Origin: a virus | Taxonomy: Duplodnaviria > Heunggongvirae > Uroviricota > Caudoviricetes | IMG/VR virus record: IMGVR_UViG_2703718850_000003 | Length of the DNA stretch: 6,009 nt | Strand: one strand, 5' to 3' | Shown: piece by piece, positions 1-5,152 of the stretch | Layout: each line of letters starts with the position of its first letter | Numbering within the stretch: the first letter of the stretch is position 1 | Program-made: the position numbers and the translations under genes | Notes under the pieces: model-generated | Told to the model about the DNA's origin: nothing | What the model saw: the letters and a program-made list of their open reading frames with translations, nothing else | The model's database searches: none

Positions 1-873
1 AGCTCGCGATAAAAACTCTTTGTTGAGTTCAGGTATTTTGTCCTGATATTTGACTAACTGGTTAGCAATACCAAAATTTACCCATCCAAGGCCACGACCT
101 CTGAGCATGCTCTGAGTAAGTCCGGTTCCCTCATACTCCTTTGCAAGAGCAGCAACTCTTTCTAACAATACAGGAAGATTTTCTGCTGCCCCTTTTTTAG
201 GATTTATCCCTAATCCAATTAGCCCGTTGTAGGCAGGATGCTGAGTATCATTTTGCGCGGCTGCCAGTGTATTGAGCAAATTACCAACACCGGAAAAATA
301 AGGCGAATAAGTGCTTTCTGCCGCCTTTAACTCTCCTGGAGTTGCCTGCAATTCATCAGCATTTTTCTGTTTCTCTACAACATTACGAGCCATCATGCCA
401 AAGCCAAACGGCCCGGCAACGCCCATAACCGCAAGTTTTGTCCCCCACGATACGGTGGTTTTAAACAGGTTGTTTAATCTCGAAGTGGTCGTCCGTAGCG
501 TAGAATTGATCTGCTTGTAAGTTTTCAGCGTCTGTTTGGCGTTTTTCCCCAGCCCGCTGAGATACTTATCAAACATCGTTTCGCCGCGACCTTTATAGTT
601 GCTCACGAACGAATCCGCTGTTTTTCCGCTACCGACAAAGCGCCCTTTTTCGTCCCTCACTCTCCCGGATACATCCGGTCCTGTCCGACCAGAATTTGCC
701 GCCACGGGCAAACCGGCGCCCCCGCCGCTCCCACTCTGCCCCGGAATTTTCATCGGAGTTCCGGCAGGGCCAATCATCAGACCATTGCGATACTTTTCAA
801 ATATCGCCTCAAGCCGCTTGAGGTGTTCTTCATTAACATCCAGCGTCAGAACTGGCATCTGGTTACCAGCCAT
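1..873 (-). CDS. Probable tail tape measure protein, N-terminal 291 codons; gene continues beyond the window start
   Basis: ATG at 873..871 preceded by AGGAG 7 nt upstream (in 874..890). I checked every codon of this minus frame from 873 to 1 by hand (+ strand triplets from position 1 contain no TTA/CTA/TCA) and found no stop. The start overlaps the upstream chaperone stop as TGATG. The translation begins MAGNQMPVLTLDVNEEHLKRLEAIFEKYRNG, then a Gly-rich stretch and a hydrophobic segment (KLAVMGVAGPFGFGMMA). Position directly after the frameshifted chaperone pair is the canonical place for a tape measure gene. Not in the supplied ORF track because it has no stop within the window. Confidence 0.55.
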   Translation of the reverse strand, partial: MAGNQMPVLTLDVNEEHLKRLEAIFEKYRNGLMIGPAGTPMKIPGQSGSGGGAGLPVAANSGRTGPDVSGRVRDEKGRFVGSGKTADSFVSNYKGRGETMFDKYLSGLGKNAKQTLKTYKQINSTLRTTTSRLNNLFKTTVSWGTKLAVMGVAGPFGFGMMARNVVEKQKNADELQATPGELKAAESTYSPYFSGVGNLLNTLAAAQNDTQHPAYNGLIGLGINPKKGAAENLPVLLERVAALAKEYEGTGLTQSMLRGRGLGWVNFGIANQLVKYQDKIPELNKEFLSRA

Positions 874-1555
874 CACAATACTCCTGCGAGATTTTTGAAT
901 TTGAGCAGCTCACGAAACTGAGCTGCTGTTTTTACATTCAGACCGGAATCTGCACAGATGTCTCTGAATCCGGCTCCGGCTGAGTAGTCGAGGATGTCGC
1001 TGATGACGTGTTCGCCGTCGCGCCAGAACTGGCGGCTGATTTCAATGTCGGCAATGAAGCGATCCATTCCGTAAGATTCAATGACGAGCATTGAGTGCTC
1101 CATATTCCATTGACCACATCCATAGTCCCCTTCGCCTGCTCCGGTGAATTTATCGACGAGACGCATGTAAAAAAAATGAGCTCACCCGCTACTTCGTCCA
1201 AATCAATGATTTCACGCTCCAGCGCCATATCGAGAGGGATTGTGTCGTAGCCTTTGCCCTCCACTGGATAAACAAGGTTTGCCAGGCGAATGACCTCATT
1301 AACCAGTGTATTACGGACCCCTTTATCACCTTCCCAGGCATTAGAATCACGCGAGATCCGCTCCAGCATCAAAAAAGCGATACGTGGCCCCGCAACGACG
1401 CCAAGACCTTCGGAGAAAATGGCAGAAAAGGTTTTACTCAGAATGAAGAAATGCTCTTTAAACACCTCTTTGCTGATCGGCGTGGCATGGATCCAGCCAT
1501 TACCCTTTTCTGTCCGGACAGGAATAATCAGATTCAGATTTCGGGAGATTTTCAT
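873..1555 (-). CDS. Tail assembly chaperone, predicted -1 frameshift fusion product, about 227 aa (zero frame 1555..1169, then -1 frame 1169..876, stop 875..873)
   Basis: The -1 frame (ORF track 873..1166) is closed by TGA at 1184..1182 and opens just 2 codons before the slippery site. It then stays open for 98 codons to a TGA that overlaps the tape measure ATG. Its composition is protein-like (MRLVDKFTGAGEGDYGCGQWNMEHSMLVIESYGMDRF...). The predicted junction is ...GELIFF|YMRLVDK.... The architecture matches the conserved chaperone frameshift seen in lambda G/GT and P2 E/E+E'. Confidence 0.5.
938..1555 (-). CDS. Tail assembly chaperone, unshifted (zero-frame) product, about 205 aa
   Basis: ORF track 938..1567 starts at a GTG, but an ATG at 1555..1553 overlaps the tube stop (TGA 1554..1552) as ATGA and has a GGGA-like motif upstream, so I prefer 1555 as the start. 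It sits between the tube gene and the tape measure gene and contains the slippery run at 1169..1176. The C-terminal roughly 76 aa after the slip site is S/T/A-rich and low-complexity, and may be run-on rather than functional. Confidence 0.55.
   Translation of the reverse strand: MKISRNLNLIIPVRTEKGNGWIHATPISKEVFKEHFFILSKTFSAIFSEGLGVVAGPRIAFLMLERISRDSNAWEGDKGVRNTLVNEVIRLANLVYPVEGKGYDTIPLDMALEREIIDLDEVAGELIFFTCVSSINSPEQAKGTMDVVNGIWSTQCSSLNLTEWIASLPTLKSAASSGATANTSSATSSTTQPEPDSETSVQIPV
1169..1175 (-). other. Candidate -1 programmed ribosomal frameshift slippery heptamer U_UUU_UUU, inside an 8-T homopolymer (1169..1176)
   Basis: The minus-strand coding sequence reads CTC ATT TTT TTT ACA in the zero frame (protein ...GELIFFT...). 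The heptamer T(1175) TTT(1174..1172) TTT(1171..1169) fits the X_XXY_YYZ pattern. After a -1 slip the next codon is TAC(1169..1167), then ATG(1166..1164), continuing the 873..1166 ORF. Confidence 0.5.
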
Positions 1556-1995
1556 ACCAGATCCCACATTTCAGAGTTGATGTAATACGTACCGGTAATG
1601 GTGATGGCTACACCCGGCTCGCCCCCGGCGAAGGTCATATCCTGCACGTTGGTGATCGCCGTGTTATAGATATCGAAGTCACCGAACACCGTGCTGTCGC
1701 TATACACTTTTGCGTCGCCGATCGTGGCGTTCTTTTCCCATTGCGCCTTGAATTGTTTTCCCAGCGCCTGGCTACGCAGCAGATGAACACGCGCCTGTAA
1801 AATCATGTATGGCTGCGGCGACTGCACGGCTCCCGTCATGGCGGGTAAAAACTCCGTAATATTGCCCTGAAAGGACAATTCGACGCCTTCTTTTGCCAGA
1901 AATGAGGCGGACACATTCAGTTCGGAATGAGAGGTGAATTTAACGCTGGCGCGAACCCGGTTAAGGGTGCCAACAGGGATCATTGGATTAGGCAC
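1552..1995 (-). CDS. Probable tail tube protein (147 aa from the GTG start; 143 aa if the ATG at 1983 is used)
   Basis: GTG at 1995..1993 with GAGGGA 7 nt upstream; this RBS overlaps the sheath stop codon (TGAGGGA). Alternative ATG at 1983..1981. Size and position (immediately after the large sheath-like gene, immediately before the chaperone pair) match the sheath-tube-chaperone-tape measure order of contractile tail modules. The stop TGA overlaps the chaperone ATG (ATGA). Confidence 0.55.
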   Translation of the reverse strand: MPNPMIPVGTLNRVRASVKFTSHSELNVSASFLAKEGVELSFQGNITEFLPAMTGAVQSPQPYMILQARVHLLRSQALGKQFKAQWEKNATIGDAKVYSDSTVFGDFDIYNTAITNVQDMTFAGGEPGVAITITGTYYINSEMWDLV

Positions 1996-2006: not shown

Positions 2007-3344
2007 TCACGAAAGCTGCATTGTCACATTGATGTTAAAAATGATTTCGACAAATCCGCGCATCGGCGTATAGGAGGCCGAAAGGCCCGCATAACGCCCG
2101 ATACCGTAATCATTCGGATTCGTGTTGATATACTGGCGGAAAGGCACTGCATCGACGACAGGCTGGCCGTTGACCAGGCCGTAAGATACGCCCGTATTGA
2201 ACACCGCCTGTGCGACCTGCTGTAGACGGTCGATCCCGTCCTGGTTGTAGTAAAGCGGGTTAATTGGGTTATTGCTGCCGTTGATCACCGTGTTGGCGAG
2301 CTGCATATCGACATTAATCTGCACCCAGTCCACGGAATACCAGTACGTCATATCGTTACCGTCACTGGTAACGCCTTTCACCAGAATCGTGTTGGAGATT
2401 CCGCCCTCAGCCCCCGTTTCGACGTAGTTAATATTCTGCTTCGTCATCGTGGCCAGAATGGAATTTTTGCCCTTGTGGGCGTTTACCGCCTGTAGATAGC
2501 GAAATGCCATCGGCGGCACCTTGTTGATTTCTGAAGGTGATGCGGAAACATAGTTCCACATTACGGCTGCTGCCGCGTTTGTCGCCGGGTACGTATCATC
2601 CGCCGTTGCAATAACCGACTTAATACCGGCATAAGGCGAAACGTAATTCGTGTCGTCCGGCGTTTTCGTCAGCACGAAGAAATACTGCATCGCTTCGTTG
2701 GCGGTGTGGAGTTTTGCCAGACTGATAAACTCCGCGTCGCCATCCCACGTCTGCGGTACCAGATAAGCGTAAAAACGCTGGAGCGGATCTTCCATATAAG
2801 ATTTCAGCGCAGCGATTTCCTTACTGACTCCGCCTTTCTGTACTCCCAGCTCCAGCAGGTAAATCCCCACTGAATTTCCCTGGGCAAAAAACGTGTTTAC
2901 TGCCGTCACCAGATTTTCACTGCCAGCAATAGAAAACTGCCCCAGCGTCACTGGAGAACCGGAAAGCTGAGAACCAGTAATAGTCCAGGTCAGTGTTTTT
3001 TCATCCGTGACGGTAGCAGTATATTCGCCATTCCACGCGTCGGGCGAACACCCGGAAACAACAATTTTCACCTCAGAACTGTTTTCGCGTCGGATGTTGC
3101 TCCCTTCCGGAAGCGTCATCGTTACGATGACGCTTGCCGCAGATCTTCCTGCGACAGCTGCCGACAAGGCAACAATCGGATTTTTAACCAGTTCGTTAAT
3201 GTCCTGATTACGGGTGAGTAATACGGGTTTTCCCGGCTCATGAGTCGTGGAACCAAACGAGAGAACCGCAGACATCTGCTGCAAATTCGAGGGAATGGCC
3301 CCGATGGTCTGGGACACATTCACCGTGACGATATTAAATCCCAT
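2007..3344 (-). CDS. Probable contractile tail sheath protein (445 aa)
   Basis: ATG at 3344..3342 with GAGG 7 nt upstream; overlaps the upstream gene stop as TAATG. It is the largest complete ORF in the window and directly precedes the tube-sized gene and the frameshifted chaperone pair. The protein is Gly/Ser/Thr/Asn-rich with many predicted beta-strand-like segments. Family assignment needs an HMM search. Confidence 0.6.
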   Translation of the reverse strand: MGFNIVTVNVSQTIGAIPSNLQQMSAVLSFGSTTHEPGKPVLLTRNQDINELVKNPIVALSAAVAGRSAASVIVTMTLPEGSNIRRENSSEVKIVVSGCSPDAWNGEYTATVTDEKTLTWTITGSQLSGSPVTLGQFSIAGSENLVTAVNTFFAQGNSVGIYLLELGVQKGGVSKEIAALKSYMEDPLQRFYAYLVPQTWDGDAEFISLAKLHTANEAMQYFFVLTKTPDDTNYVSPYAGIKSVIATADDTYPATNAAAAVMWNYVSASPSEINKVPPMAFRYLQAVNAHKGKNSILATMTKQNINYVETGAEGGISNTILVKGVTSDGNDMTYWYSVDWVQINVDMQLANTVINGSNNPINPLYYNQDGIDRLQQVAQAVFNTGVSYGLVNGQPVVDAVPFRQYINTNPNDYGIGRYAGLSASYTPMRGFVEIIFNINVTMQLS

Positions 3345-4288: not shown

Positions 4289-4730
4289 TATTATCTATCC
4301 ACGCTATAAAGCTGCCCTTAAACAGGCCGCCGTCTATGAATGACGGACGCCGCTCTCCGGTATATTTGTCCTTAAGCCTGGAGTTAACGCCCAGTAGCGC
4401 GGCCTGAGTTGGCACAGGGTTTCCGTTAATCGTCATCCCGGCCATTTCTTCAGTTTCAAGAAAAATATGGAAAATCTTCCCGGTCCCTTCCAGAAAATGC
4501 TCGCCAGGTAGCGGAGCCTTATACTTGAAGTGATTGACCAACTGGTACGCCAGTTCAGTACCTGCCTCCTGGATAATCTCGTCCTTATGCATTTCCCAGA
4601 AGTGCGTAAAAATTTCGTATCGCTCCTCGAGGTCACAGGCTACGTCAAACGTGGTTTTTCCCGGTTCGTCGCCGTAGTCATACGGCTGGTCGATAACCCC
4701 AAAACAAAGTTTCATGGCGTGTAACCCCAT
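4275..4730 (-). CDS. Hypothetical phage head-tail joining or tail completion protein (151 aa; 146 aa if the start is the ATG at 4715)
   Basis: ORF track start ATG 4730. An in-frame ATG at 4715..4713 overlaps the upstream gene stop (TGA 4714..4712) as ATGA and may be the true start. Stop TGA at 4277..4275 lies 14 nt inside the downstream gene. Confidence 0.7.
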   Translation of the reverse strand: MGLHAMKLCFGVIDQPYDYGDEPGKTTFDVACDLEERYEIFTHFWEMHKDEIIQEAGTELAYQLVNHFKYKAPLPGEHFLEGTGKIFHIFLETEEMAGMTINGNPVPTQAALLGVNSRLKDKYTGERRPSFIDGGLFKGSFIAWIDNNAES

Positions 4731-5152
4731 ACCGTGCCCATCTGCATCAGCACCGCAACAACCTGTCGTCCATACGGATCCTGTAACATCTGTAAATCCA
4801 GCAAAGACAGATTACTCAGCGCATCGCTGATGGTGATCGAACCCGATGTCCCCTGGTCTGCTGCCGCACTGACAAGCCCGGTAGCCAGTTTCCCAAGGTT
4901 GAGTTTTTTTCTCAGGTCGGCAAACCACGAGCCGGGAGCGAAATTCAGGAGAAATGAGGCAGCAGCGTTATAAACCGTTCGCACATAGATGATGGGTAAA
5001 CGCTCCAGCCCCTGATCATGAGGGATTAGCTCTATCGCAGACTGAAAGCAACATTCCAGCGTCGGATCATCGTCAGCAATAGCGTGAACCGGTACTTTCA
5101 TGTCGTCACGAACAAAGCGAATAAATCCCTCCAGTGACGGACGCAAGGTCAT
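4712..5152 (-). CDS. Hypothetical phage head-tail joining protein (146 aa)
   Basis: ATG at 5152..5150 overlaps the upstream stop (TAA 5154..5152) as TAATG. Same strand and coupled to neighbours. Position between capsid and sheath suggests a connector, head completion or neck role, but this is positional inference only. Confidence 0.7.
   Translation of the reverse strand: MTLRPSLEGFIRFVRDDMKVPVHAIADDDPTLECCFQSAIELIPHDQGLERLPIIYVRTVYNAAASFLLNFAPGSWFADLRKKLNLGKLATGLVSAAADQGTSGSITISDALSNLSLLDLQMLQDPYGRQVVAVLMQMGTVWGYTP

Follow-up and report, generated by a model that had tools for sequence, protein, structure and literature searches.

Does a run of T in the middle of a phage tail gene lead some of the ribosomes that translate it to change reading frame, and what kind of protein would these ribosomes make? 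The question is raised by a stretch of 6,009 nucleotides (nt) from the virus record IMGVR_UViG_2703718850_000003 (Caudoviricetes), hereafter called the window, in which a gene for a product of 205 amino acids (aa), here named G, carries eight consecutive T on its coding strand. An earlier reading of the letters of the window, hereafter the original prediction, had seen in this run a candidate programmed -1 ribosomal frameshift joining two reading frames of a tail assembly chaperone, by which the open segment of the -1 frame, here named T, would be fused to the first part of G. From the comparison of sequences reported below, it appears very probable that this fusion, GT, is made by recoding at the T run and, with slightly less assurance, probable that the mechanism is a ribosomal -1 frameshift of the G/GT type.

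The probable slip site and its two reading frames

The elements on which this reading is built all lie on the minus strand, in window coordinates:

1169..1175, minus strand: slippery heptamer U_UUU_UUU, within a run of eight T (T8, 1176..1169) and followed by A1168.
1182..1184, minus strand: TGA stop of the -1 frame, lying two codons before the shifted P-site codon; its position varies among relatives.
938..1555, minus strand: zero-frame product G, 205 aa, ending at TGA 940..938; it matches phrog_11810 and is the sole annotated product in the records.
873..1169, minus strand: -1 segment T, 98 sense codons (YMRLVDK...LAGVL), ending at TGA 875..873; it matches phrog_14324.
941..1168, minus strand: dual-coding overlap, 76 codons in the zero and -1 frames, on the evidence of codon-phase diversity and of the conservation of both translations.

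On the coding strand, the zero frame reads GGT GAG CTC ATT TTT TTT ACA TGC around the site, and the heptamer stands in the X_XXY_YYZ register, with UUU 1174..1172 in the peptidyl (P) site and UUU 1171..1169 in the aminoacyl (A) site (Phe128 and Phe129). From the re-read base 1169, the -1 frame continues as TAC ATG CGT... for 98 codons until TGA 875..873, giving a fusion of 129 + 98 = 227 aa whose residues 1-129 are common to G. The junction peptide predicted for GT is GELIFFYMRLVDK, and the segment TCVSSINSPEQAK of the G tail is unique to the zero-frame product. On these points the original prediction was accurate: the in-frame U_UUU_UUU within the T8 run of the minus strand, the closure of the -1 frame at TGA 1184..1182 and the 98 codons leading to a stop that overlaps the tape-measure-like start can all be read directly from the window, and the junction peptide had been correctly given. 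It had not noted, however, that the zero frame continues: after the slip site, it runs on for 76 codons (228 nt) to its own stop, and this conserved tail makes the G/GT layout an atypical one.

The last base of the GT stop is also the A of the ATG of the next gene (TGATG, a one-base overlap). An AGGAG lies 8 nt upstream of this ATG (873..871), within the T coding sequence, and the G stop lies another 64 nt upstream; only frameshifted ribosomes would thus finish at the start of the next gene, which could permit a translational coupling specific to GT. From the standpoint of annotation, every record inspected lists only the 205-aa open reading frame (ORF), as a hypothetical protein, and none lists the frameshift; the -1 part is either left blank or called as a small, spurious ORF.

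Conservation of the heptamer and of both translations

The original prediction had proposed homologs as a check on the slippery run and the -1 frame, and both proved to be conserved across distant relatives. A scan with a small alignment found 5 genome loci and 27 distant viral loci; the distant set comprises 22 distinct loci of 32-51% protein identity, with a guanine-plus-cytosine (GC) content of 35-67%, from several phyla; among them are Arsenophonus, Sphingomonadaceae, Acetobacteraceae, a Chloroflexota metagenome-assembled genome (MAG), environmental viral contigs and the cultured phages Chronis, RothC and PdC23. T_TTT_TTT stands in the same zero-frame register at 21 of these 22 loci, the remaining one having C_TTT_TTT, and the base that follows the heptamer is A in all 22, so that the -1 frame reads Tyr (TAY) and meets no stop. 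The length of the run, in turn, is eight in 18 of the loci, seven (T7) in 3 and six (C followed by T6) in 1, with T8 found after a Val or Ile residue and T7 after Cys or Thr; since the run length tracks the preceding codon in this manner, the conserved unit is the seven-base register and not the length of the run. Given the amino acids and the local codon usage, the probability of the heptamer is 0.003-0.33 per lineage, and it is therefore unlikely to arise from codon usage alone. Closer to the window, the viral loci carry T8 in 56 of 58 cases and T9 in the other 2.

The original prediction had also found it hard to explain by chance that the -1 frame should open exactly at the slip site. Such an opening is indeed present in the window, but it is not conserved: the -1 frame of relatives opens anywhere from 2 to 129 codons upstream of the site, so that the argument weighs little, and TGA 1184..1182 is not counted here as part of the signal because its position is not conserved in them. 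The extreme case is a 67% GC Acetobacteraceae MAG (L066; 2503..3225), in which the -1 frame meets no stop over the entire stretch of G that precedes the site (129 codons), and in which the TTT TTT pair is conspicuous against a local TTT usage of 15% for Phe. The features that do exceed chance are rather the conservation of the heptamer and that of the long -1 ORF.

Counted from the site, this -1 ORF spans 100-117 codons in the 22 distant loci, and in all of them it reaches the start of the next gene or overlaps it. In most distant lineages it has no ATG, or a first ATG only 24-103 codons in (ATG starts only being counted). It thus has the makings of the second ORF of the G/GT type, being in the -1 frame, overlapping, reaching the tape-measure gene and mostly devoid of an ATG of its own. 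Seven residues (Y130, Y162, G163, D170, G196, F197 and R215) are invariant in 21 diverse fusions, and the motif E.YG...F..D[IV][DE]..R.[FY]WRDG.H..S..LD[YW]..G.GF...[FY]R.R recurs across lineages, the protein motifs of the -1 frame being kept at 30-40% identity across phyla. When a fused homolog was searched against cluster representatives, 626 proteins were returned; among the matches listed, most representatives measure ~186-200 aa and align only over query residues 1-130, that is, up to the slip site, and a few proteins of 227-263 aa align over the entire fusion and read ...VFFY... at the predicted junction.

The zero-frame tail is conserved as well. After the site, the zero frame counts 76 codons in the window and 58-68 in relatives, and among 64 diverse relatives F129 is invariant, F128, S167 and L168 are conserved in at least 90%, and the tail holds an LW motif and a ...S-[IV]-P-[ST] C-terminus. 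To see how two translations can share the same DNA, it is informative to look at nucleotide diversity (pi) by codon phase, which we computed in two independent clades, one from E. coli (41 unique sequences) and one environmental (12). In the values below, zero-frame position 1 is -1 position 2, zero-frame position 2 is -1 position 3, and zero-frame position 3 is -1 position 1:

E. coli clade, G-only region: pi at zero-frame positions 1/2/3 = 0.071 / 0.042 / 0.309
E. coli clade, overlap: 0.074 / 0.136 / 0.137
E. coli clade, T-only region: 0.109 / 0.198 / 0.069
Environmental clade, G-only region: 0.137 / 0.056 / 0.343
Environmental clade, overlap: 0.065 / 0.135 / 0.254
Environmental clade, T-only region: 0.085 / 0.276 / 0.144

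Where a single frame is in use, pi is highest at the wobble position of that frame, whereas in the overlap neither wobble is free: in the E. coli clade, the zero-frame wobble falls from 0.309 to 0.137, level with the -1 wobble at 0.136. Past the G stop, the pattern of diversity switches to the -1 frame in both clades. The overlap is thus under constraint in both frames, as a true dual-coding stretch would show, and the -1 product has the two marks by which the original prediction could be judged, namely conservation as a protein and, past the G stop, a codon-phase pattern of its own frame.

Structure predictions give an idea of what the two tails may look like. In an AlphaFold2 model of G built on a 64-sequence alignment (predicted local distance difference test [pLDDT] 89.8, predicted template modeling score [pTM] 0.80), the slip site falls within a predicted helix (119-135), residues 130-170 past the site are modeled with pLDDT 94-97 (helix 138-152, strand 155-157, helix 161-167) and residues 171-205 are disordered. 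This disordered Ser/Thr/acidic stretch (938..1045, minus strand) keeps its C-terminal ...S-[IVL]-P-[STHV] across distant relatives, a motif that resembles a short linear docking motif. For GT, the model (pLDDT 76) retains the core 1-135, followed by a disordered linker (137-148) and a helical T domain (148-220, pLDDT ~70-79), the latter being only moderately confident because the alignment, made of database proteins, is shallower. According to these models, the shift is predicted to replace the structured C-terminal part of G and not simply to extend it, since the slip falls within a helix with 76 codons of G still to come, which amounts to a swap of C-terminal modules.

Probable mechanism of the shift and competing explanations

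In the mechanism that we propose, most ribosomes would stay in the zero frame and make the 205-aa G, with its folded core, its G-specific helices (~138-167) and its disordered Ser/Thr-rich tail. A minority, whose P and A sites both hold a tRNA-Phe on UUU, would slip back by one base, re-pair perfectly, read UAC (Tyr) and then continue along the 98 codons of the -1 frame, to terminate at the stop that overlaps the tape-measure-like ATG. The 227-aa GT released there would begin with the shared residues 1-129 and go on, through a flexible linker, to another helical domain, T. If lambda G/GT is taken as a guide, the residues common to both products may coat the tape measure protein and the T module may recruit the tube protein, with a fixed low slip rate setting the G:GT ratio. 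We infer in this scheme the ribosomal nature of the slip, its low efficiency, the chaperone function and the binding partners.

As regards the motif, H_HH.U_UU.Y heptamers rank among the efficient -1 motifs in E. coli, where U_UU.U_UU.U shifts at >0.1% without a stimulator (PMC4066793). Neither the upstream Shine-Dalgarno (SD)-like element nor the stem-loop of the stimulated dnaX/IS3 type of -1 programmed ribosomal frameshifting stands out in the window. The original prediction had suggested folding the downstream RNA, and a downstream stimulatory structure in the window was rejected on comparison with shuffled sequences and is inconsistent across lineages; as for an upstream SD-like stimulator, it is present in some lineages and unremarkable in the window, and the SD-like tract is in any case inseparable from protein constraint, because its purine-rich sequence encodes a conserved E-V-E-G motif. 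Some other lineages differ in this respect: 7 of 17 have an SD-like tract that ranks in the top 5% of their gene, and downstream folds reach a z-score (z) of -3.7. In environmental viral contigs (L124-L150), the 65 nt located 11-75 nt past the heptamer beat their shuffles in several members (z -1.6 to -3.7, mononucleotide shuffles only) and may form a lineage-specific stimulator. Since the window shows neither a downstream structure nor an exceptional SD-like match, a low, stimulator-free shift rate is likely, and such a rate would fit a G-rich, GT-poor ratio as in lambda.

Several observations weigh against a ribosomal frameshift in a tail chaperone gene. The two downstream folds of the window are no better than shuffled ones (z +0.3 to +0.6), and its upstream SD-like match is ordinary, at -4.6 kcal/mol or the 40th percentile of the gene. 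Early constructs tested in E. coli showed U_UUU_UUU to be far less shifty than A_AAA_AAG (PMC5009743). The homology searches brought out no significant likeness, in sequence or in fold, to known tail assembly chaperones: Pfam and NCBIfam returned no match, nor did a PDB profile search return any; in BFVD Foldseek, the names "tail assembly chaperone" and "frameshift protein G" recur, only at weak expectation values (E 0.16-5); and the matched phrog_11810 and phrog_14324 are PHROG families without assigned function. The clade of the window has an ATG (1166..1164) two codons past the site, at which translation might begin independently, and the count of start codons in the -1 ORFs of relatives covers ATG alone. 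A T8 run, as found in the window and at 18 of the 22 distant loci, could support some transcriptional slippage.

This last possibility leads to the closest competitor, in which RNA polymerase would add a U on T8 and so produce mRNAs with nine U (U9) that encode the same GT; comparing ORFs cannot separate ribosomal from transcriptional slippage, because the resulting protein is identical. That the run is indel-prone is seen in the T9 variants found in assemblies, and E. coli genes contain UUUUUUU less often than expected in each of the three frames, for which transcriptional slippage is one proposed reason (PMC4066793). However, what relatives keep is the seven-base register in the zero frame and not the length (three T7 lineages and one C+T6), T8 occurring only as a by-product of the preceding Val or Ile codon. 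A T6 run is a poor template for transcriptional slippage. C_UUU_UUU, by contrast, remains a competent ribosomal motif of the H_HH.U_UU.Y class (PMC4066793), and the documented bacterial cases of transcriptional slippage cited in a review are runs of 9 A or T (PMC5009743). Programmed transcriptional slippage would show in runs of 9 selected for their length, which is not what is found here, although the threshold is not sharp and a minor contribution is possible; as the source of GT, we hold it to be unlikely. A still less likely option, to which we give little credit, is that of two separate genes, with the -1 ORF made alone, as a 97-aa protein started at ATG 1166..1164, and no fusion at all. 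This ATG is also found two codons past the site in Arsenophonus, it is preceded at ~14 nt by a GGTGAG tract, and PHROGs lists a 97-aa family (phrog_14324) for the -1 ORF, as some gene callers do. Yet the spacing between the SD-like tract and ATG 1166 is long, and the N-terminal part of the ORF stays open although, in most distant lineages, the ATG is missing or late. Separate genes would also give the heptamer no reason to be conserved, when an invariant Tyr after FF and an invariant A after the heptamer are sensible only if the junction is translated.

It could further be supposed that the -1 ORF is untranslated, and that its openness and apparent conservation merely follow from selection acting on the zero-frame tail, or on the DNA or the RNA itself. 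The frames do overlap for 76 of the 98 codons of the -1 frame, so that their conservation is partly shared; but the -1 ORF reaches 20-42 codons past the zero-frame stop, with pi peaking there at the -1 wobble (0.198 and 0.276), its protein motifs are kept across phyla, it always ends at the start of the next gene, and its T part models as a helical domain (pLDDT ~70-79), all of which leaves this explanation highly improbable. The same can be said, with even more conviction, of an artefact or pseudogene, in which the true gene would be a single 227-aa ORF with T9 and the T8 a sequencing error or an inactivating indel, an outcome that the original prediction had named among its refutations. Single-ORF forms do exist in databases (P0001-P0004, P0125, P0128, P0131 and P0133), and one locus (L005) carries T9, but they are rare and sporadic, and the two-frame T8 state stands: it is found in the 56 of 58 close viral loci mentioned above, 5 of 5 records examined in the E. 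coli clade annotate the 205-aa zero-frame ORF alone, and the 205-aa clusters occur on hundreds to >1000 contigs each when four close fused clusters occur on 1-6. The close fused forms, moreover, switch frame at the run, 7 codons later, ~50 codons later or by a double shift, and four different switch places are the signature of sporadic indels; the distant fused P0125 and P0128 are T9 on single metagenomic contigs and keep an intact, conserved zero-frame tail of 59-60 aa in the other frame, this tail being itself conserved and structured. On the grounds of sporadic indels, of the 56 T8 loci and of intact tails, the T9 fused ORF was rejected as the true gene. A ribosomal slip on the conserved heptamer thus remains the reading that we prefer for the window.

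Tail module and likeness to known frameshift systems

The window corresponds to the tail module carried by a myovirus-type prophage of E. coli. It is 100% identical to a prophage of E. coli F2_407_2_2, and related prophages are present in 93 of 5426 complete E. coli genomes, as well as in the form of phage Rac-SA53, for which we found no paper treating the tail genes. The minus strand carries all genes, in the order sheath, tube-sized gene, 205-aa ORF and tape-measure-like gene:

2007..3344, minus strand: tail sheath gene, 445 aa; it matches phrog_205 "tail sheath" (E 1e-53) and is named only hypothetical protein in the records.
1552..1995, minus strand: presumed tail tube gene, 147 aa, from its position after the sheath and its size; it matches phrog_6566, a family without function.
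1..873, minus strand: 5' part of the tape-measure-like gene, with an SLT domain, starting at ATG 873..871; it matches phrog_7694 and is named from the annotation of homologs.

The stop of the 147-aa gene, which we infer to be the tail tube gene, overlaps the start of G (ATGA), and the tape-measure-like coding sequence is annotated at a full length of 679 aa. The G/T pair therefore sits between a tube-sized gene and a tape-measure-like gene, as the G/GT type requires, and the order of sheath, tube-sized gene, G/T and SLT gene is identical at every locus inspected, including the close records and Chronis, RothC and PdC23. The homolog of the SLT-domain gene in RothC carries the annotation "tape measure protein"; more generally, the SLT-gene homologs (L001-L003 and L068-L070) are named hypothetical protein, lytic transglycosylase/SLT-domain or tape measure protein, and in Chronis and PdC23 the annotated start of this gene either leaves the final part of the -1 ORF without annotation or overlaps it.

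Two further observations can be mentioned. A record with Actinobacillus pleuropneumoniae as its recorded host (L004; PP818812.1, "Actinobacillus phage vB_Apl-pPE4") is ~88-90% identical in nucleotides to the E. coli tail region, which is unexpectedly high for hosts of different orders, and the host assignment may merit a re-check. Elsewhere in the window, a second in-register heptamer, A_AAA_AAA, is found at 4904..4910 (minus strand), inside a 146-aa ORF (5152..4712; AGA AAA AAA CTC, ...LRKKL...); the next stop comes after 30 codons in the -1 frame and after 28 in the +1 frame, which leaves no obvious extension product.

From a wider perspective, the frameshift itself is expected biology, and what deserves attention is rather the annotation missing across the whole family and the long two-frame overlap. 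In a broader reading, which we regard as evenly balanced between support and doubt, the locus would belong to a widespread tail-chaperone family ranging from Enterobacteria to Chloroflexota, unannotated in the databases checked and with undetectable kinship to gpG, in which the frameshift acts as a mid-domain switch between mutually exclusive conserved C-terminal modules, encoded on 60-76 dual-coding codons kept across phyla. If this mid-domain switch were real, one would expect a separate role, necessarily missing from GT, for the G-only module that closes with the conserved ...S-[IV]-P-[ST]. Recognizing the frameshift gives a likely function to two functionless PHROG families and to a family of >600 cluster representatives, and it would extend the conserved frameshift between tube and tape measure genes to a lineage without detectable gpG homology, in which the shift exchanges C-terminal domains. 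The 76-codon stretch would also offer a clean natural case of long-term dual-frame coding, usable for studying the co-evolution of two proteins on one DNA segment and for sorting out the parts of the chaperone that the abundant and the rare form each require; in this regard, the cultured phages Chronis, RothC and PdC23, together with inducible E. coli prophages, make the system tractable.

Among known systems, the E/E+E' pair of phage P2 is reportedly encoded in the FETUD tail operon, with a T_TTT_TTG heptamer, an E of ~90 aa and a slip close to the end of E. It is thus said to resemble the present locus by its contractile tail, its slot between tube and tape measure genes, its U-rich heptamer and an extension that overlaps the tape measure start. 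To our knowledge, a long conserved dual-coding overlap has not been reported for P2, which was not among the phage matches and to which no sequence similarity was found.

E. coli dnaX (tau/gamma) and IS3 orfA/orfAB likewise make two proteins with a shared N-terminus through a tandem -1 slip on an X_XXY_YYZ heptamer (PMC5009743, PMC4066793); in contrast to the window, which holds no significant ones, they need strong stimulators, namely an upstream SD-like element and a downstream hairpin or pseudoknot, and they belong to another genetic context. Thermus dnaX, with its A9, and Shigella mxiE/spa share with the present gene a homopolymeric A or T run that, within a coding region, leads to a trans-frame product (PMC5009743), but their runs are of 9, when the run is here T8 (T7 or T6 in relatives) and the codon register is what is conserved.

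The system that comes closest is lambda G/GT, which shifts "near the 3' end of g" on G_GGA_AAG with a G:GT ratio of 30:1 (PMC5009743, summarising Levin, Hendrix and Casjens 1993; Xu, Hendrix and Duda 2004, 2013, 2014). Both occupy the slot between the major tail or tube gene and the tape measure gene, both would yield two products with a common N-terminal part through a -1 slip on an in-frame heptamer, without evident need for an RNA structure and with a second ORF lacking a start, and in both a low shift rate (presumed here) would set a fixed ratio. The G/GT-type arrangement claimed in the original prediction therefore holds as far as the conserved genomic slot, heptamer and -1 ORF are concerned, and fails as regards the place of the slip, which is mid-gene and followed by 76 zero-frame codons, and not near the 3' end of G as in the type described by Xu, Hendrix and Duda (2004). 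The present locus also departs from lambda by its U_UUU_UUU, its contractile tail and the lack of any detected sequence or fold similarity to gpG-type chaperones. Above all, the GT of lambda holds essentially all of G, whereas the slip occurs here at codons 128-129 of 205, inside a predicted helix; because the shift comes at codon 129, GT would be devoid of the C-terminal third of G, and 76 codons would serve both proteins at once.

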